NCBI GenBank assembly: GCA_020137815.1
Contig: CM035351.1
Location: forward strand, 4,030,001-4,094,000
Direction: 5' to 3'
Source: Hormiphora californensis
Lineage: Eukaryota; Animalia; Ctenophora
Length of the DNA: 64,000 bases
Part shown: positions 2,866 through 55,455 of the stretch, piece by piece
Position numbering within the stretch: the stretch's first letter is position 1
Layout: each line of letters starts with the position of its first letter
Notes under the pieces: model-generated
Database searches by the model: none
Told to the model about the DNA's origin: nothing
What the model saw: the letters and a program-made list of their open reading frames with translations, nothing else
Translations under genes and position numbers: made by a program

Positions 2866-3728
2866 AAGGGTGCCAGTTCCTCACAGGAAACTATCCGTGT
2901 CCACTCCATGATTGAGTTGTTGTTTTGGTTAAGATATCCGAATACCAGTGGGAGAAATTAAATATATTCATCCATTTCCTTTAGATCTTTCGAGTTGTGG
3001 TCGTGACTGACGTTTGAGTGATTGTGGAACAGGTAGGGGTTTCTGCATTTTTACCGAGACGGTTGTTGTTTTGAATGTGCCATGTGGATGCCGACGTTGT
3101 TGGGCGCTTTGCCATTCGTCATTTTCCGCATCACAATGCCGCTGTAGTGTTCTCGACGTCGGTCGGCGTTGAAGGCGGTACGGGATCCTTCACCGATTGC
3201 GAATCATAATTCGTATTTCGTAACGCTGTTTGGTTGACCGTCAAACATTGACGGTTTGCGACAGCATGGCAAAAAATCTTTCGGGTTGGTTAACGCTGCA
3301 GAGGCCTGTATTGCATGCCTATCCTTCCAGCTAGCCCACTGTGCACTCGACAGCCGACTTCCGAGTTGGCAAATGCTACACGGTATAAAGGCAGCGTTTT
3401 TGCCTTTTCAAACTTCCGAGTTGGCCTATGCTACAGAAGCCGTGGAAAACGCGCGCACTTGGGGTCTGCAGCGCATGCCAAACTTCCGAGTTTTAAAAAA
3501 AAGAAGTTCAAGTTTTAAAAAAATGACCTGAAAACATTTTGAGATGCCGAAAAGTTCAGCGCGGCTCAGCATTTGTTAATGGAACGCGCAAAAATTTGCT
3601 CAAAAATCGCTGCGGCGCGCCAATTTAGAATTTATATTTGTAAGGTTCCAGATAAAATTTTAAACTTCAAGAGCTCTTTTTTACAAATTTGACGTTTTTT
3701 TTGTCACCTTTGACCCTCAGACCCGCTG

Positions 3729-3908
3729 TAAAGTCGGATTTTTTGAAGTTGTCACCCCCTTTCCGTGCGCGGAATGTTTTTGCGCGTCACATCACATGTT
3801 AACGTGTAGTGTGCGCGTCAAAATTTTTTTTTTTTTTTGCGCGTCAAAATTGATAAATTTCACATGCGCGGTCATTTTGGAGTGACAACTTCAAAAAATC
3901 CGACTTTA
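3729..3908. mobile_element. MITE with 27-bp perfect terminal inverted repeat
   Basis: TAAAGTCGGATTTTTTGAAGTTGTCAC ... GTGACAACTTCAAAAAATCCGACTTTA; TA at both ends. Confidence 0.75.
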
Positions 3909-4005
3909 TAATGCAATCATTATCATTTAATGATTTAAAAACTGTTCATTGGAATTTGGAAATTTCCCACAAGACGATATTAACGCCAGTTACATTTCGT
4001 AGTCA

Positions 4006-5910
4006 ATGTTAACGGGTGATTTGCCCCAGCGTGTCAAGTGTACAGGCTGTGGCCAGCCCAGACTTCTCTTCTGCTACGACTGTGTAGAGCTATGTACTTA
4101 TGAAGCTGTGCCAGAACCCATTGCTCTCCCCGTGGAATGTCATATCATTAAACACATCGAGGAACATAGCAGTAAATCAACTGCAATCCATGCTCAGCTG
4201 CTCACCACCAATACAACACTGTTTGAGTTTCCTGGAGGACAGGTCCCACCTTACACAAGCTCAGGGGATGTGGTTGTGTGTTATCCGTACCAGCATTCCC
4301 TTAATATCCCTGAATACTGTGAAGAAATCAGGGAAGGGAAGCGGATTAAACCCAAAGTAGTGTTGTTTCTAGACGGCACATGGAGCAATGTACAGCAGAT
4401 AGCAGCCAAATACAGTCACTACCCGGCTGTAAAACTCGTCTCCCATGAGACTGATTTCTGGCGGAAACATATGCGACACACTCCCCCCACCTTCCTATCA
4501 ACGATCGAGGCGGTTTACTACTTTTACAGGGAGTACTGTGGTGCGCTACAACTGGAATACCCAATCACCCAATTAGACACTGTGCTACACCTATTCAGAT
4601 CACAAATCGAACTCCAGGAAAAGAAGGAGGAGAGTCAGCTGTCTGTGATAGAGGACCCTGAAGTTTTGCAGTATCTCCAGATGGGTTTATCCCACGAGAA
4701 ACTTCTTAAAATAACACGAAGTTTATCCATTCCTCCCAAGTTTACCACCCTTCGTGTTAACACACTTCACACAACAATTGAAGCAGCAGCTGCTAAATTA
4801 AAAGAACATTTGGGCAAGTCCTACTCAGTCTCCCGACACAAATCCCTACCGGATGTTTTGGTAATCTCAGGGAAACAGCGGAGCTCTCTGACTCTCTACC
4901 CTAACTCCGTTATTGTGGATAGAAAGTGTGGCAAGGCGGTCTTGAGAGGGGCTGATGTCTTTGCCCCTGGAGTTAAAGGCATGCCTCACCTTCCACTGGG
5001 TGCCAAGGTATCCATCCTAGTTGACAGGGACCACAAGTGCAAGAAGGGAGAAAAGCAGTTCACGGGAGCTACGGTCCACATTGGTAATGGAGTGGTGAAC
5101 CTCACTAGGGCTGATATCTACAAGAAGATTGTGAAATCTGGAGTGGCGGTGGAGGTCACCGAGAGACTAATATCTGTCCCCTCACTACATGGTTACCGTC
5201 CTGATCTCTTCTTTCTTCAAAACCTGCCATCTCTCCTGGTGTCCCATGTGCTAGCCCCTGAACCAGGGCACTCAGTGTTGGATATGTGTGCTGCCCCGGG
5301 CGGGAAAACAACCCACTTGGCTCAGCTAATGGGGAACTGTGGAACTATTGTAGCGTTAGAGAAAGTGGGACACAAAGTGGAGGAATTGCGGGCACTACGG
5401 GACAAACTTGGATTGTCCTGTATTACCATTCACAAGTGGGACTCCACTGAAGTGTTTGATGCTAAGGCTGACAATGATTGTTCCACCCCGCCATTTGGAG
5501 AGGGAACCTTTGATCGAGTGTTAGTTGATGTACCATGTAGTGCACTAGGTCAGAGACCCCAACTCTCCATCCAAAGCCGATATTCCCAGATCTCTTCTTA
5601 CCCGTCGTACCAGTGGCGTTTCCTGGCAGATGCGGCCCGTTTGTGCAAGGTGGGAGGTTCCCTCGTGTTCTCAACTTGTTCCCTGCCTGTCCAGGAGAAC
5701 GAGGGTCTGGTTGCTAGGTTACTACGGGAGAGAAGTGACATGGAACTGGTACCGGCACTACCACTCCTTGGCGAGCCAGGGTGTGCGGATCAGCTGACAG
5801 AAGAGCAGTGCAGGATGGTCCAGAGGTTTACACCAGACTCATATGGGGGTGTTGATTCTGATACTATTGGGTTCTTTTTAGCCAAGTTTATAAAATGTGC
5901 TAGTGTGTGA
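4006..5910 (+). CDS. DTWD1-NSUN6: Intronless fusion of a DTWD1-like tRNA acp3U transferase and an NSUN6-like tRNA m5C methyltransferase (PUA + MTase), 634 aa
   Basis: N-half: CxxC..FCYDC, IIKH..KSTAIHA, LDGTW (DXTW), LSTIEAVYYF. C-half: PPKFTTLRVN, AVLRGADVFAPG, QNLPS, LDMCAAPGGKT, FDRVLVDVPCS.LGQRP, FSTCS..ENE. Confidence 0.9.
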   Translation: MLTGDLPQRVKCTGCGQPRLLFCYDCVELCTYEAVPEPIALPVECHIIKHIEEHSSKSTAIHAQLLTTNTTLFEFPGGQVPPYTSSGDVVVCYPYQHSLNIPEYCEEIREGKRIKPKVVLFLDGTWSNVQQIAAKYSHYPAVKLVSHETDFWRKHMRHTPPTFLSTIEAVYYFYREYCGALQLEYPITQLDTVLHLFRSQIELQEKKEESQLSVIEDPEVLQYLQMGLSHEKLLKITRSLSIPPKFTTLRVNTLHTTIEAAAAKLKEHLGKSYSVSRHKSLPDVLVISGKQRSSLTLYPNSVIVDRKCGKAVLRGADVFAPGVKGMPHLPLGAKVSILVDRDHKCKKGEKQFTGATVHIGNGVVNLTRADIYKKIVKSGVAVEVTERLISVPSLHGYRPDLFFLQNLPSLLVSHVLAPEPGHSVLDMCAAPGGKTTHLAQLMGNCGTIVALEKVGHKVEELRALRDKLGLSCITIHKWDSTEVFDAKADNDCSTPPFGEGTFDRVLVDVPCSALGQRPQLSIQSRYSQISSYPSYQWRFLADAARLCKVGGSLVFSTCSLPVQENEGLVARLLRERSDMELVPALPLLGEPGCADQLTEEQCRMVQRFTPDSYGGVDSDTIGFFLAKFIKCASV

Positions 5911-5936
5911 TGTTTATGTTGTTTTATTGTTTTAGT

Positions 5937-7050: not shown

Positions 7051-8084
7051 CTAAGTGAGCTCAGCAGCAAATAAACAACAAACAGGAGCTTTCAACTTAA
7101 AAAACGAGAATATTGCTCTGTCCTCCCATTCCAGACTCCCCCACTGTTCCATAAAAATGTCATCGAATGCATGGCCATCGGGTCCGTTGCAAAAGTGAGT
7201 GGAGAGAATGTTGTACATGCTCATCATATCAAACTGCCTTTTAGCTCGCCTTGACATCCCTGCCGTGCATGTGCACGCATTTGTCTTGCCAATCATGGCC
7301 GTAATTCTGGAAATCCTCGCTTCACCTCGTCTCAGTACCTCACAACCAAACCTTGATTTCAGCCCGTCTGACTTGCAGAGCACATCCCCAGACATTTCCA
7401 TAGTTGTCTGCATGACACGCTCTGAAATTTCCTCGCAGCAAAACAAGTTTCTTGCTGATGTAGGGATTCCCTTGCTAAGACAATGATAAAGAGCGACCCT
7501 CTGGTCCTGTCGTTTGGTCGTGTACCAGTATTTTGCACCCTCTAGGGCATCTCCAAGAATATCCTCCCCGTGGGTATAGTCAGTGCTCTTGTCACTTTTA
7601 CACAGGTGGTCACTTACTAGAAGTGCTAACTGAAATGGGTACAATCATTGGTGACGCAGTCACCCTTCGGCCTCCATTACCAGCCGCGTGAAGTGCGGCA
7701 AACGAAGCCCGAACATAGTAGGGGATGGCATCACCAAGTACAATCAGACCAATAAAACGTGATTTTAAAGTGATTAAAAAATACGTACCAATCTAAAGAA
7801 GCCCATTTTACCGGGGTCCAATTCGCTGATCCAATCCAGAGAGCCCGTACAAAGATATGTTCTTATCATACTAATTCCCACGGTAAGACTACCCATAAAG
7901 TCTTCTGGTACAATGTCTCCTGCACTGAATATAATTTGGCAAGATGAGAACATATTAATTGTAGATTTGACTGATCCGTTTGTACTGAGTTTGAGCTAGT
8001 TTGAGTTGCCTGATATTGTGTCTAAGCTACCTACCCGTGTACTGCTACCATCATTGGAGCAAGAAATAGAAGCAAACAATTCAT
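7051..8084 (-). CDS. Uncharacterised, probably secreted Cys-containing protein (multi-exon)
   Basis: First exon MNCLLLFLAPMMVAVHG (signal-like) ends at a GTAGGT donor; middle exon GDIVPEDF..; ~190-codon last exon after a TTTCAG acceptor; no family recognised. Confidence 0.55.
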
Positions 8085-8568: not shown

Positions 8569-10621
8569 ATGTTCAAAAACTTGAAACAAAAAACTCTCAA
8601 CAACTCCTCAGCGGGTGATTCCTCTCTCCTCAGCTCTCGAAGTATCAGTTCCAACTCCCTCAACAATGACAACCCGGACACGCTCCACCAGTCAGTTGAT
8701 AGCTTGAACAGTGACCCACCCGTCAGTCAGAATGTAACTCACTTTGGTAACCTCCAGGACATAATATCGGACCTCCGGGCGGAGATAGAAAAGAAAGATG
8801 CGGAGAACAAGAAGTTGCACAAGTACTCCCGTGAAGCGGAGAGGAGGATTAACGAGCTGGTTGAGAACTGGACGAAGGAGGTGGAAGGTAGGAATAGTCT
8901 GGAGAGAGCGTACGATAAACTAGAGGATAACCATCAGATTGAGCTGAGTAATGTCAGGGAAAAGGGAGAACAGGAGCGGTTACACGCTTGTAACCAGTTA
9001 CAAAACCAGATCGACCGGCTGAAGAAGGATAATGAGAAGTTGGGTAAGAAGGGTGGGGGAGGAGATGCTGTCGCTTGGCAGAACAAGGCAGAATCACTGG
9101 AGATGGCGTACAATGAACTACTGGAGTTGCAGGAACACAGTGAGGTCCAAGTTCAGAAAATGAAGGATCTCATCAAGATGAAGGATGCTGAGCTCCAGGC
9201 GTTGGAGAACAAGTTTGTTGAAACTGAAGAACGATTCAAACAACAAAGCACTGCTACAGCTGAGGGCAATGGTTCTGATGATACGACCGATAAGCCCCAC
9301 CCTGATGTGGAAGTTCTCACTTGGAAAGTTGCCAAAGCGGAACAGGAGGTGGAAGATCTGGAGAAGCAGGTTGTAAAGTTGGAGATTGAGCTTGAGGAAA
9401 CTACCCAGAAGTCCGCTGATAAAGACTTCCGAGTGAACAGGCTCCGTGAGGATATCAAAAACAAGGATCTGGTAATTGAGACCCAGAGAGCGGATGCGTT
9501 GGAGCTTCAAAATGCCCTTGACAGAACGTCTAACATGCTCAATGAGACAAAATCTGAGTTCGAGGTGACCCGATCTAGCTACACAAAGAGTCTGAGTGAC
9601 CTACAAAGTGAAATAGACTCCATCACAGAGCAGTACAAGGAATGTAAAACGGAGAGCAGACGACAGACAGACCTGGTTGAACAACTTCAAATTGCCGCCT
9701 CCGCCACAAAGACCCTCAAAGTAAATCTCCAGGAAGACCTGTCCAGCTGGAAGACTAAATACGAGGAAGGAAGGAGTGAGTGTTTGCAGCTCTACACCGC
9801 CCAGACCGAGTTTCAGGGTGAGATTGAGCGGTTACAAGGGGAACTGGCTGCGAGGGAGACTCTGGCAGCGGAGTTAGCAGCCCTCAAAGATGAGGTTCTG
9901 GCCCTCCAGCAGACGGAGGAGGAGTTGAGGTTGGAAAAGGAGTACCTCACCGTAGCTCGGGAGAGCTGGAATAGTGAGAGAGCGGAACTGGAGGAGTCAT
10001 ACTCCAAACAGACAGACAGTTTGAATGAGAAACTACGTGATGCGAAAGAGGAGATTGGGCTGTTGCGACGCTCTAACCAGCCCACTATTCTGCCTGTGTC
10101 TAGCAACCTACAGGCCAAGTTTGTTAAGGGTGTGACCGAGGTGGATGTGACGGGGACCAGGAGCGATGATGCGGCCGAGTTGAGATCTAAAGTTGCCGAG
10201 CTAGAGAAGGAGTTGGGCTCGAAAACAAAGCAGCTGAAACAGCAACAACAACACTTGGCTGACCTAAAAAAGACAATACAGAGCGAGTTGAGAGGTGGTG
10301 TGCCCTCCCTCCTCTCAGAGAGGCAGCCCTGCCTCAGGGAGGAAGGATCAGCCCTCCTCAGCGCCTGTAGAGAATCAGCACAATCTGGGGGAGGATGTGA
10401 ATAGTGAGTATCTGAAACACTGTGTTATCAAGTTTATGTGTTCTCTTGATAATGAAACGAGTTATCTAGTTCGGGTAATCGCTGTCCTGTTGAACTTTAG
10501 CAAGGAAGAGACTTCCATTGTTAATGATGCGTTACAATATAAACAGAGTTGGTTCAAACAAGTGCCACCGAAATCGTTACGTAAATTAAAGAGTACGCGA
10601 GGGTCACCTCCAAAAAAGTAG
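8569..10621 (+). CDS. GOLGA1: Golgin-97-like coiled-coil protein with C-terminal GRIP domain (frame break near 10295-10361)
   Basis: Long coiled coil; GRIP region VNSEYLKHCVIKFM..LVRVIAVLLNFSKEE..ALQYKQSWF is in the +1 frame; joined either by a 67-nt GT-AG intron (10295-10361) or by a 1-bp indel. Confidence 0.85.
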
Positions 10622-10930: not shown

Positions 10931-11344
10931 ATGTCTCGAGAAGTCCTGCTCACTCGTATTGAATCCTTTTCCGCAGCCCACCGCCTCTACAACTCCTCCT
11001 TAACAGACGCAGACAACACCTCATTATTCGGGAAGTGTGCCTGGGCAAATGGTCACGGACACAACTACAAAGTGGAGGTGAGGGTGAAGGGGAGGGTAGA
11101 CTCTACATCAGGGATGGTAATGAACTTGTCCGATCTGAAACCTCTGATACAGGGTGTCCTGGATCAGGTTGATCACAAGTGTCTGGATAAGGATGTCCCG
11201 TATTTTGCCGATAAACCCTCCACTGCCGAGAATATAGCCATCTTCTTCTGGGATGAGTTGGTGGGCCAGCTGCCGGATGGGGTGAAGTTGAATAAGGTGA
11301 AGGTGTGGGAAACGGAGAAGAATGTAGCTGCATACAAAGGGTGA
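10931..11344 (+). CDS. PTS: 6-pyruvoyl tetrahydropterin synthase, intronless
   Basis: FSAAHRL, FGKC..NGHGHNYKVEV, GMVMNLSDLK, DHKCLDKDVPYF, STAENIA, VWETEKN. Confidence 0.95.
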   Translation: MSREVLLTRIESFSAAHRLYNSSLTDADNTSLFGKCAWANGHGHNYKVEVRVKGRVDSTSGMVMNLSDLKPLIQGVLDQVDHKCLDKDVPYFADKPSTAENIAIFFWDELVGQLPDGVKLNKVKVWETEKNVAAYKG

Positions 11345-11422: not shown

Positions 11423-11463
11423 TTTCAAACTTTTCAACACTACTTTAAACAAATTAATTTGAG
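11423..11463 (+). other. Spliced-leader-like exon at the 5' end of LINE A
   Basis: TTTCAAACTTTTCAACACTACTTTAAACAAATTAATTTGAG; identical over 40 nt to 44915-44954 (-); matches the ctenophore SL as I recall it (ends AAATTAATTTGAG). Confidence 0.8.
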
Positions 11464-33824: not shown

Positions 33825-35755
33825 TCAACCCGTCCACTCAGAGGGAGCCAGTGTTTTCTGTGAGAATGCGTGAATTCCAGGGATCTCATCCTTCAACGCT
33901 GCATGGACCGCTTTGTGTCGTTTCAGCCGGGACATCCCCGTGAACTGATCCGAGACTATGACCACGGAGATCTTTGCTCCACAACCATCACTCTCGTCTT
34001 CTACCGTCTGAAAAGGGGGGGGGGTGGTGTAGAGGATACTCTGAGATGGGGTACCGAGGGGAAGGTACACAAGTGAGTAAGGAGTTACATAGCACGTCAA
34101 GCACAGAGGAGAGTTGCAGGAAATATTTTAGGGTGGGAGATATGGGCGTTACATAGCAATAAGATCAGGGCAGGGGGAGTTACATTTGGCAGAACAGGAT
34201 AAAACAGGTAGCCACATTTGATCAAACGAAGGGAGGGGAAATAATACACAACACTCGGTGGGGAGACAATACACTAGGGGGGGGGAAGATGATGTATACA
34301 TATCATGTTACTCACACCGGTACACACTACGCACACGTGTGTCCCAGATTCTGAAACACCAAAAAGCAGTCCAACATAGGTATCTTCACTCGACTGCTAT
34401 AGCATACAATATAATATACATCAGAGACACATAAAACAAACAAACATAAAACATCCAAGTTATACATAGGTGTTACTTGAACCTGACGTAGTGACAAGTG
34501 ACTCAAGGCGTAACTGTAGTAGTGGTACCCTTCGTGGGAAGCAGAGTCACCCCACGAAGGGTACCACCCAACTAAGTACCACATTGCAGTGCAACACCAT
34601 GACTTGTTGGCAGAGGCTAGATGCGTTGAGAGTTATAGTCAACCCCCATCGACAACAACCACCCCAGTAGGAAACTTCCATCATCCTGTGATCCGGGATA
34701 CCAGCCAAAATTTGGTCGGAACTCGGAGAAATGATTTGAGAATAATTTGAAACTTGCCATGCCCAAATATGGGTCATATTTATGATCCAGGGTGATTGTG
34801 TTGATAAAATTTTAAAACTTGTCGGGCGCCATGATTTGGTACTGTGCAAAGTGCACATTGTCAGTGTGTCGCTTGACAAGCCGTTTTCCGCGCGCTCAGA
34901 TCATGATCCGGAGGAAACTTTTGTGATCTCGATCACAAATTTGATACTAGGATACCAGCCGGCGGCTGGTAGATCTTGATCCCGCACGGCTGGTCCGCGC
35001 GCTCCAAATAGGATCCCCTGAATTGCCAATTTAACAGTGCTCGGTTAGCTCAGTTGGTAGAGCACGAGACTCTTAATCTCGGGGTCGCGGGTTCGAGCCC
35101 TGGGTTTAAATCTGACCTACTGACATTTTTTCACAAAAAGTTTTGGAAATTAATTTTTCTTATGACATAATCTTCTCTCCCTTTTTCTCTCTACTTTATT
35201 TCTCTCTCTCACACACATAATGATGATTTAACACATAATGATGATTTAACACATTTTTCCCCTGCCTTGGTGAATTCATGCCCGAAGGATGTTTTTAGCA
35301 CCAATACCAAATGATACCAAATGTATTGGTTACCATACCAACCACACTGGATACCATAGAAATCAGTCAAACATGCTCTTTGGGCACCAAATTCACCAGG
35401 AAATCCAATTTTGAAGTGTATTCATCAATTTTTCACCCAATTGTGGCAGAGAAACCTCGCATTATGAATACATAATGCAATAATTCTTGTTACCCTAAAC
35501 TTTGGGGCTCCGCAAGACCTTTTCAAAACCAACCAAAAAGAAGAAAAAAACCAGCCAAATTTTCTAGAAATTCAGATACCAGCCGATTCTTGGAAGTTTC
35601 CTACTGGGACAACCACATCGATTTAACTGCTCATCTCACTCTTCAAGTTGTAACACCACGTGGATGGCTATTGGATAGATGCGTTAAGTACTCACCAAAT
35701 GAGCCGGACTAAAAGCTTCCTTCAGCTTCGTTTCAACAGTGGCTGCAGTTGACAT
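33825..35755 (-). CDS. BOLA2: BolA-family protein, 2 exons
   Basis: MSTAATVETKLKEAFSPAHL|TVEDESDGCGAK..VSDQFTG..RHKAVH..IHAFSQKT; paralogue assignment is tentative. Confidence 0.85.
35039..35105 (+). pseudogene. tRNA-Lys(CTT) pseudogene or tRNA-derived SINE head
   Basis: A box TAGCTCAGTTGG, anticodon arm GAGA-CTCTTAA-TCTC, B box GGTTCGAGCCC; the 3' half of the T stem and acceptor stem is missing or degenerate. Confidence 0.75.
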
Positions 35756-51295: not shown

Positions 51296-54200
51296 TATGT
51301 GTGAGAAGAAGTGGACTACTGTCGTGAAGACAAAGGTGGAGAAAGCATTGAATAAGATTCCAGTCCTAGATCTTTCAGTCACCAAGAGGAGGACAAATCT
51401 TATGTTTGAGACCGATGAACAGTTGGAACAGGCGAAAGAAGTTCTTTCACCGTTCCTTGATGTTTCTCCCGTAGTGGAGAAGGAGAAGAAAAGAGATCCT
51501 CGCATCATGATCAATGATCTTGACCAAGACCTGCTGGAAAAAGATCGCCTTCTGTCAGAGATTGTCAGTGATAAGAATGAGTCTGTGAAGAGACTAGTTG
51601 GGGAGGGTCACCTGGTGAAGGTGGTCCATGTAAACAGAACAGGAAGATATGCAGTGTTCCAGGTCTCTCCAGAAGTGAGGAAGGCGATATCAGAAAGGAA
51701 GGACAAGCTATTCTTGAAACTTCGACAGCATTCAGTGAGGAACAGGTTTTATGTCACGCAGTGTTTTCACTGCCAGCGCTTTGGCCATGTAGCAGGATCC
51801 ATCTACTGCCCAAACAAGGATAAATCTCCGGTTTGTGCCTTCTGTACGGGAGATCATGACACTAGGAGTTGCCATGCCAAGAAGGAAAATGTAGTGAGCA
51901 GGATGAAATGTGTCAACTGTGATCATGGAGGAAGCAGAGAGGACAAGCGCCATGCTCAAAGTCACCCAGCCTCCAGCAGTATGTGTCCATTCTATGTAAA
52001 TGCTAAAGGAAGACTCATGGAGAGTACCAGTGGAGTAACGAAGCAGGAAAAAAACGTGTACCTGACGAGGGCATGGGAGGATCTGAGAGGAAAACGTCTT
52101 GGAGGATTGGCACACTAAACGTCCACTCAGTTATGAATAAGACGTCAGGTGTAATTACACACTTGGAGGAAAAAGGATGCGACATCTGCTTGGTACAGGA
52201 GACTTATCTGAAACAGAGTGACACAGCTAAACTTCAGGAGATTAGAGACTATGGTTGGAATATCTTCTCCTCGCCTAGAGCGGAACGTTCAGGAGGTGGA
52301 ATTGGAATCTTGTACAGGGTTGGTGTCAAGTTGAAATACACTCCGGTAAAAGCTAAGTTTAAATCGTTTCAAGTCCAGGAAGCCCTTATTGGAGGAGGAA
52401 AAGATGTGACGAGGCTGTGCAATATCTATAGACCTCCGTATACTGGCAAGGCACGGTTTACAGAAGCCCAGTTCTTGGATGAGTTTACTGATTATTTGTC
52501 AGAGTTGGTCTGCAAAACGGGGAACCCTATCCTGATGGGGGACTTTAACTTCCAGGTTCAAGATACTCAGAACTTCTATGCGAAGAAGTTGCTTGGACTA
52601 CTTGACTCTCTTGGATTTGATCAGCGGGTCCCACTACAACCTACTCATGTTCGTGGTGGTACTTTGGATCTGCTTCTCTGCCAAAAAGACAGATATTCTA
52701 AGGTTCAATCAGTTGAAGTATTTCCTGACGGAACGACCTCTGATCATTTTCTTGTATTGGCGGAGCTGTGTATTGAAACTGTAGCAAGTGAATACAAGAC
52801 TCGTGAAAAAGTGGACATGTACAGGGATTTCAAGGCTGTTGATATTGAAATACTTCGATGTGCTTTTAGGAGTGTGGATTGGAGTGAAGCGATGGAATCT
52901 GGATCAGCTGAGGAGGTTTTGTGTATTTATATGAGGAAACTTGAGGAACTTGTGGATAGGACTGTCCCGTTGAAGAGGAGAAAGAAGAGAGGAGCTAAGC
53001 TGAGGCCATGGAGAGATAATCCAGAGGTGCGTCAAGTTCTTCGTCAGCGGCGGAATGCTGAGCGAGCCTGGGAGAACAATAAAACCAGCGTCACGAAGAA
53101 GCAGTTCAATGAACTCAAGAGGCAGTTTGGGCGTGTTGACAAGGAAGCGAGGACGAACTACGTCAAGGAAGACTTGGAGGAGTCCAGAGATGACCCCAAA
53201 GCACTTCAAAGGAAATTGAACCGTCTACTTGGTAATACTGAGACCTTTATGCCTGAAACCACAGATAAGCGGAGGTTAGCGGATGACTTTGCGGACTTCT
53301 TTGTTGGAAAAGTTGATAAGATCCGGTCTACTGTTATTGGAGAGAAGAATCTGAGGACTAAGAGGAACCCTATTCATCAGACACCCGTCTGTTGTTTTGA
53401 GGAATTTGAGGAAGTTTCCCCAGAGAAACTAAAGAGGATAATCAAAGACATGCCAGACAAGACATGTGATCTTGACCCTATACCGACTTGGTTAGTGAAG
53501 GGGTGTATGCATGAGCTAGCTCCAGTCTTGTGCAGGTTTATTAACCTATCTCTTGGATGTTCCAGTGTTCCTGAACTTCTCCAGCAAGCTTTGGTGTTTC
53601 CAACGATTAAGAACCCTTATGGCGATAAGGACACTTTGACCAATTATCGGCCAGTCTCCAACCTATCTTTTGTCTCCAAGCTTCTTGAAAAGATAGTTCT
53701 AGAGCAGCTCAACTCGTATCTTAATGAGAACGAGTTACTAAATAAGCATCAATCAGGTTACAGGGTGAATCATAGCTGTGAAACCCTACTGATGGGTATG
53801 TTTGATGATCTCCTTCGGGATATGGATGAAGGAAAGGTCGCAGGCCTCTTTCTATTAGATATGAGCGCCGCTTTTGACACAGTGGACCATGGAAAGCTGC
53901 TAGAAGTTCTTGAAGAACGGTTTGGAGTGAGAGGTTCTGTCTTGGATTGGTTCGCCAACTATCTACAAATGAGGACTTATCGGGTAAACGTGGAAGGGGA
54001 ACTTTCGAGGATTGTCTCTCTGATATGTGGAGTTCCGCAAGGTTCACTGCTTGGACCTGTGTTGTTTTTACTGTATGTGGAGGAATTGCAAGATTTGGTC
54101 AAACCGTATGGCTTAAGGATTAAACTTTATGCTGATGACTCGCAATTGTACATCAGCTTTGTTCCAACTGATGAGGAAAACTGGAAACTGGCAAAGGAGA

Positions 54201-55455
54201 GGACTGAGGAATGCTTGTCAAGTGTGAAAGAGTGGATGAGTGAGCACTGGCTAAAGTGCAATGAGGCAAAGACTGAATTCCTGCTGTTAGGCAAAAACAG
54301 CGCCCTGGATAAGATGGTCTATCAGCCCACTGTGGACTTTGGTGGAGTGGAGATAAGCCCAGTGGACTTTACGGGGAGTACAGGGAAAACACTAGGAGTG
54401 TTCCTTGATAGCAACCTCTCTATGGAGAGGCAAATCAACAGTGTTAAGAGGCAATGTGGTTTGTTGTTGAAGAATCTATGGCAGGTAAATCGGTGTCTAG
54501 ATAGATCGACGAAGATACTCCTTGTTAAGCAGCTCATCATTTCAAGACTGGATTATTGTAATATCCTTTACCATGGCTTACCTAAGAAGCTTCTCAACAG
54601 CCTTCAGAGAGTCTTGAACTCGTGTGTCAGATTTGTTTATGGCCTACACGGTCACCAAGACACCTACATGCCATACTTGAAAGAATTGCATGTTCTTCCT
54701 GTGGAACAACGAGTCACGTTCAAAGCATGCCTGATGGCGTACAAGATTGTACATGGATTGGCCCCTGACTACCTGCAAGATCAGGTCCCTGTTGATGATG
54801 GACTTCATGTGATCCGGGCTACTAGAGGAAATGCTTGGCCTGATGGCCTCAAGCTGAAGTACCCTAAGCTATCAAGTGTCAACGCGACTTCCAAGTTGAG
54901 AAGAAGACGTCCGTCGGTTTACCTGCCTGAAGTCTGGAATAGGCTTCCCCTTGATCTGAGAGCTGTTGAGTCTGTGGAATCTTTCAAGTCTAAGCTCAAG
55001 ACTAGTCTTTTCACTGAGGCTTTTGGTGAGACTGGACTGTCCTCTTAACACTCTCCTTCTTGCTGAGGTATGTGCTCTAGCTGGTACCCGTTTTTAATTA
55101 TTTTTCTGTATTTAAGCTCGTGGCGAGCAGAAGTGTGAAGCATAAATTGGGGTTTTTCATAGCACGAGTGTTTTTCTGTGTTCCAATATACGGACTTTTA
55201 TATCATTTTTTAGAGTTCCAGGACTCTAACTCAGTCTGTTATGTAATCAGTCACCGATAGTTATGTGAGCCGATAGTAATGTGAGCCGGTGTAATTTTTC
55301 TTTATTATTTTTTGTTCTATTAGGGATAAGTTGGCGAGGTCTTACCAGTATATTAACCGTTCAGATCATCCTTCAGTGACAGCAGCAGTTTCGCTGCTCT
55401 GTCCCTGTCGGATATGGGCGGAATATAAACATAGTTATTATTATTATTATTATTA
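51296..55455 (+). mobile_element. 5'-truncated L2/CR1-group LINE (element C) with intact ORF2
   Basis: Begins mid-ORF1 (MCEKKW); ORF2 52073-55048 uninterrupted; (ATT)n tail; possible AATATGT TSD or microhomology. Confidence 0.95.

Follow-up and report, generated by a model that had tools for sequence, protein, structure and literature searches.

Does one stop-free frame that appears to encode two tRNA-modifying enzymes mark a real gene, and what would a protein joining them do? DTWD1 and NSUN6 are separate genes in humans. In Hormiphora californensis (contig CM035351.1), both were recognised from the letters alone in one frame of the 64,000-nucleotide stretch analysed here (positions 4,030,001 to 4,094,000 of the contig; the window). 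The fusion was confirmed as a real gene that is apparently undescribed. The chemistry of both enzymes is already known, and the pairing is what appears to be new.

The reading frame and its integrity

Translation of the window gave a single stop-free frame of 634 codons at 4006-5910 (+), as had been predicted. An in-frame stop lies two codons 5' of its ATG, so the frame is not extendable upstream. Pfam DTW was matched at residues 22-199 (56.7 bits, cut-off 33.7) and Methyltr_RsmB-F at residues 415-613 (134.5 bits, cut-off 27), with PUA and ferredoxin-like matches below their respective cut-offs. Residues 224-632 were aligned with human NSUN6 at E 3e-81. The motifs named in the original prediction were located at residues 123-126 (DGTW), 510-512 (PCS) and 557-559 (TCS). 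GC3 was 0.505 in the DTW half and 0.495 in the NSUN6 half, which gives no sign of a foreign half. No second copy of DTWD1 or NSUN6 was found within the 64-kb window. Feature coordinates are collected in Table 1.

The junction had been singled out as the place where a stop or an indel might appear; contigs cross it unchanged. A contig of run X5 (sample S2, a second individual) spans 4037-4723 with 0 differences and 0 gaps, and one of run X7 spans 4569-4835, again with 0 differences and 0 gaps (depth 3.8; the RNA status of X7 is a guess, and the run is possibly DNA). Contigs of run X8 fell within the frame at 5429-5615 only, and run X16 gave nothing within it. All runs were compared as contigs; X8-X14 represent small shares of the window and were left out as a guide to habitat. 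One X5 contig carries a 3-letter in-frame deletion allele at 4723, in the NSUN6 N-terminal part.

Two homologues with both domains in the same order were found: P0002 (657 aa, 49% identical over 637 residues), which stands for a cluster of eight variants of that same length, and P0010, with 645 aa and 54% identity from end to end. With the junction identical in a second sample and the same architecture in two other lineages, it is exceedingly improbable that an assembly error or a private mutation joined two genes; no observation in favour of this was found, and an assembly artefact was rejected on these grounds. A bacterial origin was rejected on the introns in the neighbouring DHFR gene, the LINEs and the spliced leader.

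Table 1. Features of the fusion gene and its immediate flanks, in window coordinates
Feature	Position	Strand	Basis
DTWD1-NSUN6 fusion ORF, 634 aa	4006..5910	+	translation, Pfam, end-to-end homologues P0002 (49%) and P0010 (54%)
Four-cysteine zinc knuckle C12, C15, C23, C26	4039..4083	+	invariant in 99-row alignment; zinc binding inferred from TapT
DTWD1-type acp-transferase domain, residues 9-212 including C-terminal helix	4030..4641	+	Pfam, model, folds, atlas clusters
DGTW motif (D123, W126)	4372..4383	+	conserved motif
Junction: DTW helix end and short joint, residues 205-217	4618..4656	+	stop-free; X5 and X7 contigs cross unchanged
NSUN6-type m5C methyltransferase (N-terminal helices, RRM-like, PUA, Rossmann core)	4657..5907	+	sequence comparison
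Lys-rich loop (K346, K347; with R368)	5035..5055	+	human NSUN6 counterpart contacts tRNA D-stem (PMC5499824)
Motif IV, D508 and C511 (human D323, C326)	5527..5538	+	sequence comparison
Nucleophile C558 (human C373)	5677..5679	+	sequence comparison
Acceptor-like site 3 nt 5' of start codon, candidate spliced-leader site	3993..4002	+	sequence
Candidate internal acceptors, AG at 4670-4671 and 4679-4680, directly 5' of Met226	4664..4683	+	sequence
T-rich spacer of 26 nt with acceptor-like AG end, before DHFR start codon 5937	5911..5936	+	operon-like; sequence

Occurrence of the architecture

The combination is not widespread. With the profiles built here, both domains occurred together in 1 of the 150 best DTW hits (of 520) and in 2 of 123 NSUN6-type proteins (120 listed of 991 hits, plus three cluster members). 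Among the rows listed for atlas clusters of at least 50 members, none held both families. Other long DTW hits carried an annexin, IBR or glycosyltransferase domain in 3 of the 24 scanned, and these are probably merged gene models. Metagenome contigs were compared with the clade alignment and 80 of 555 loci were kept; none was closer than 41% and none had a DTW match, and the comparison was uninformative. A stand-alone DTW protein of the clade was found in none of 52 candidates, a weak result, as the same word search recovered one of the two known fused relatives.

The nearest named relative of the NSUN6 half was the NSUN6-like protein of Bolinopsis microptera (XP_063674129.1, 54% identical). 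P0002, P0010 and the stand-alone relatives were grouped with Bolinopsis (support 100/99), and it is on this grouping only that they are called ctenophore-clade.

The original prediction knew of no described fusion, and none was found in print; the figure and supplement of PMC4275035, subscription papers and ctenophore annotation files could bear on this novelty. Ctenophores were absent from the literature found on NSUN6, DTWD1 and acp3U, among the papers listed. The DTW domain/DTWD1 and NSUN6 both turn up in a cancer review (PMC13185411). Fusions of the TDD domain were described by Burroughs and Aravind, in which DTW is joined to Noc2, zinc knuckles or an inactive exonuclease (PMC4275035). Extra domains are thus common to those proteins and this one, whereas an m5C methyltransferase is not among the partners in the available text of that paper.

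The DTW half

Of the 36 columns shared by 80% or more of 98 DTW homologues, the DTW half keeps 33, a count favoured by the selection of these homologues for likeness to the query. The four cysteines of the zinc knuckle are invariant in the 99-row alignment (A4) and their pattern was present in 140 of 149 DTW hits; zinc would be bound as in TapT (PMC7026641). The D/E-x-S/T-W motif is present as DGTW in all three fusions, and TapT and plant DTWD2 depend on its D and W (PMC7704012, PMC12630136, PMC7026641). The three fusions have diverged by about 50%, and each still has D123, W126, T166, the four cysteines and the S/T in the SAM-tail motif. A glutamine that is 96% conserved in the DTW family is replaced in all three (H155 here).

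The model of this half was confident (pLDDT 93). Four Foldseek matches were obtained at E<=0.001, three TapT chains and Tsr3, with modest agreement (TM about 0.41-0.45, rmsd about 8). The nearest folds were TapT (9kz5, 9kyt) and Tsr3 (5apg), and are SPOUT-like. A PDB sequence search for a DTWD1 structure returned none. The best three atlas clusters were named DTWD1 (score 0.90), the named close hits were 'aminocarboxypropyltransferase 1' or 'DTW domain-containing protein 1-like', and TapT matched the DTW profile at E 0.33 only. Judged by hit and cluster names and scores, the half appears to belong to the DTWD1 subfamily and not to DTWD2/TapT; identity with DTWD2/TapT or Tsr3 was rejected. With human DTWD1, an acp3U20 transferase of the TDD superfamily that also holds TapT/YfiP, DTWD2 and Tsr3, it has in common the zinc knuckle, D-x-T-W, the family columns and a SPOUT-like fold. 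It differs in its C-terminal fusion to NSUN6, its long branch and the H in place of the conserved Q.

Fused DTW halves stand apart from unfused ones. The half studied here is at most 41% identical to any unfused hit, and the three fused halves are united in a single clade whose branch is long (2.08). This branch, together with the shared replacement of the conserved glutamine, means that specificity may have shifted. Identity among the three fusions is 51-59% for the DTW halves and 51-57% for the NSUN6 halves; the DTW halves are thus conserved as much as their partners, which argues for a selected gene under the same constraint and not an accident of assembly.

The NSUN6 half

The rear half scored 277 bits against human NSUN6 and at most 81 against NOP2, NSUN2, NSUN4 and NSUN5; identity as NSUN2, NOP2 or NSUN5 was rejected on this difference. 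Residues of the RsmB/NOP core (K434, D508, C511, C558) are present. So are those of the PUA insertion, namely the Lys-rich loop K346, K347 and R368 and the U73 pocket R314, L404, N406 and S409, with the Pfam PUA match itself below cut-off. Thirty functional positions of human NSUN6 were taken from the Results of PMC5499824 and mapped via rat NSUN6. Of these, 22 are identical, among them human K248, D323, C326 and C373, the residues of the U73 pocket, and the lysines and arginine at the D-stem. The remaining eight are main-chain contacts, positions called unconserved in that paper, allowed Y to F or D to E swaps, or positions also changed in stand-alone NSUN6 of the ctenophore clade. The GFF motif of human F458 is present.

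Both human NSUN6 (PDB 5wwq, 9imb) and the rear half thus have the full domain order, the Lys-rich loop, the U73 pocket, the SAM residues and both cysteines. From the catalytic, SAM and tRNA-contact residues kept, both halves look active. The full-length model was weaker than that of the front half (mean pLDDT 69.6, pTM 0.55); the PUA was of low confidence, four rows covered the NSUN6 half, and the packing of the halves was unreadable.

The junction

A short charged linker had been proposed between the domains. A stop-free joint does exist, but most of that stretch is the last DTW helix in the model. The models place this helix at 187-212, a joint of about five residues after it and the first NSUN6 helix at 218-227. 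The junction sequence is not alignable among the three fusions. The fusion protein has no Met between 156 and 226. Residues 217-224 correspond to the beginning of stand-alone NSUN6, in its first helix, and lie upstream of Met226, the one Met close to the junction; this points to translation across the junction. Compared with stand-alone NSUN6, the protein has a 212-residue acp-transferase in front, without a start codon before the first helix.

History of the fusion

Fused and stand-alone forms were interleaved in the NSUN6 trees. The window gene was the first to branch in the clade, P0002 paired with the stand-alone protein P0163 (96/92 and 97/93), and P0010 grouped with Bolinopsis and others. 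With 14 rows, monophyly of the fused forms was rejected (p = 0.008); with 12 rows lacking P0163 (p = 0.088) or with 37 rows (p = 0.077) it was not. Constraining the stand-alone forms together gave p = 0.055. On the 37-row tree, one gain with two losses was as short as three gains. Several relatives, Bolinopsis included, appear to have NSUN6 without the DTW half; the stand-alone proteins other than that of Bolinopsis may be incomplete gene calls.

The interleaving suggests an old fusion and later losses of the DTW half. One gain followed by losses is favoured, because repeated identical fusions are less likely and because of the weak result that no free DTW protein of the clade was found. The gene probably arose once, early in the clade, when two closely spaced genes of a trans-spliced cluster were joined; the DTW half was probably lost or split off afterwards in several lineages. 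An origin from adjacent operon genes, as in the original prediction, is plausible with DHFR starting so close behind the fusion stop, but the two genes were not found side by side and unfused, and an old fusion followed by DTW loss agrees at least as well with the trees. The patchy distribution in the clade could serve as a marker for ctenophore gene evolution and as a test of how fusions come about in trans-spliced clusters.

Proposed function

The locus probably encodes one translated fusion protein, in which two tethered tRNA catalysts act largely independently, and which stems from a single early fusion with the DTW losses or splits described above. By analogy with the human enzymes, the front domain would transfer the aminocarboxypropyl group of SAM to U20 of tRNA, and the rear domain the methyl group of SAM to C72; C558 would form the covalent adduct and C511 would release it. 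The expected targets are tRNA-Cys and tRNA-Tyr for acp3U20, and tRNA-Cys and tRNA-Thr for m5C72. The substrates of human DTWD1 are tRNA-Cys(GCA) and tRNA-Tyr (PMC6895100) and those of human NSUN6 are tRNA-Cys and tRNA-Thr (PMC6393295); tRNA-Cys(GCA) is the common target by this overlap. NSUN6 binds the tRNA D-stem, which adjoins the loop with U20 (PMC5499824). The PUA of the rear half, binding tRNA at the CCA end and at the D-stem, would probably make tRNA-Cys more concentrated around the DTW domain.

How tightly the two steps are linked can be read in a safe or a bold way. Human NSUN6 is cytoplasmic. Human DTWD1 is mainly nuclear (PMC6895100), so the two steps need not be coupled. Tethered, largely independent action would be the safest reading and coupling on tRNA-Cys the bold one. 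In its fullest form, the fusion would date from the base of living ctenophores, the NSUN6 half would grip the CCA end and D-stem of tRNA-Cys and present the D-loop, acp3U20 and m5C72 would be made in one encounter, and an internal leader site would also yield NSUN6 alone. This version is rather unlikely; if it were true, other animals would be suspected of having a functional DTWD1-NSUN6 link that has so far been overlooked.

ALKBH8 and the plant TYW fusions are multi-enzyme tRNA-modification polypeptides. MnmC is another multi-enzyme tRNA modifier (PMC6313347). Two tRNA-modifying catalytic domains in one chain are common to these systems and to the fusion. The known systems carry out successive steps on one nucleotide, whereas the fusion would act on different nucleotides (U20, C72) in overlapping sets of tRNAs. 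The two enzymes, apparently never linked before, are paired here by nature, and the pairing is conserved. The tRNA-Cys shared by the human enzymes allows a direct test of cross-talk between D-loop and acceptor-stem marks. For assays and structure determination, the natural fusion is a convenient construct, being free of introns and joined to a tRNA-binding enzyme that is well studied.

Alternative explanations

The locus could have a dual output, with the leader placed before Met1 to give the fusion or at the internal acceptor before Met226 to give NSUN6 without its first helix, both products being made. This is unlikely, though several observations fit it: of 59 internal Met codons in five long ORFs, 2 had an acceptor-like context, Met226 being one (AGs ending at 4671 and 4680); the first NSUN6 helix is closely preceded by a Met in P0010 and P0002 too; and 56% or more of Hormiphora long reads carry a leader (PMC8527503). 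However, the first NSUN6 helix, with its conserved codons, also explains the Met226 site, the three junction Met positions are not homologous, and the context count was made after the site had been noticed. The T content is 0.30 before Met226 and 0.57 in the DHFR spacer, although near the gene's own start it is 0.25. Another account would replace the single fusion by neutral read-through in three lineages independently, side-by-side, operon-like housekeeping genes having lost a stop, with the shared tRNA-Cys incidental. That the fused forms do not group together and that their junctions do not align would agree with it, as would the short local spacing seen in the 26-nt gap to DHFR and the gene-model fusions of DTW with annexin, IBR and glycosyltransferase domains among the hits. 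Yet three independent in-frame fusions are less simple than one, and the search for a stand-alone DTW protein of the clade, weak as it was, counts in the same direction; repeated read-through is judged very unlikely. It differs from the preferred reading in history and purpose, not in enzyme activities.

The activity of the front half can also be questioned. The DTW domain might have been retained because it helps NSUN6 to bind tRNA or stabilises it, or its target might have changed, with acp3U20 no longer made. The long branch of the fused DTW halves, the shared Q-to-H change and the relatives that appear to have NSUN6 without DTW, Bolinopsis among them, would fit such a history. Retention of D123, W126, T166, the SAM-tail S/T and the four cysteines through the divergence of the three fusions, and the confident TapT-like model, speak against it and make it quite improbable.

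Neighbouring genes

A DHFR gene with introns occupies 5937 to about 7013 (+), three pieces of it matching DHFR_1, and starts 26 nt after the fusion stop. The T-rich, AG-ending spacer resembles those of gene clusters resolved by trans-splicing, if its sequence is a guide. An intron-free 6-pyruvoyl tetrahydropterin synthase gene was found at 10931-11344 (+), which places two pterin/folate enzymes within 5.5 kb. Close upstream of it lies a 611-aa coiled-coil ORF (8569-10404, +). On the opposite strand, a 197-codon stop-to-stop frame without a Pfam match (7051-7644, -) ends about 40 nt from the end of DHFR and is probably the last exon of a gene.

Just upstream of the fusion gene, 3728-3890 is a very high-copy repeat (depth >500,000 in X5), probably a short mobile element in the promoter region of the fusion. 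At 35046-35103 (+) a partial tRNA match was obtained in Rfam (36.1 bits) and not called by ARAGORN; it is perhaps a tRNA-derived repeat.

Spliced-leader copies and LINEs

The ctenophore spliced leader, with the sequence taken from PMC8527503, occurs twice in the window with 0 and 1 mismatch (0 copies expected), which together with the Bolinopsis relative makes a ctenophore host likely. The copies lie at 11423-11463 (+) and 44955-44915 (-), each at the 5' end of a LINE. The order is the same at both: leader, GT, about 180 nt common to both copies, an acceptor-like AG, the ORF1 start (11649, +; 44726, -) and then an endonuclease/reverse transcriptase ORF. Similarity between the two LINE copies starts exactly at the leader. 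A third LINE of the same kind, with ORF2 open, was found at 51297-55048 (+), with no leader copy found before it. No convincing target-site duplication was found at the leader-bearing LINEs, and no paper on an association of leader and LINE was found among those searched. From their layout, these LINEs appear to bring along a leader exon and intron of their own; alternatively, leader-RNA genes would be the sites where they insert or the source from which they derive. They may account for part of the hundreds of leader copies reported in ctenophore genomes, and this observation is possibly more interesting than the fusion itself.
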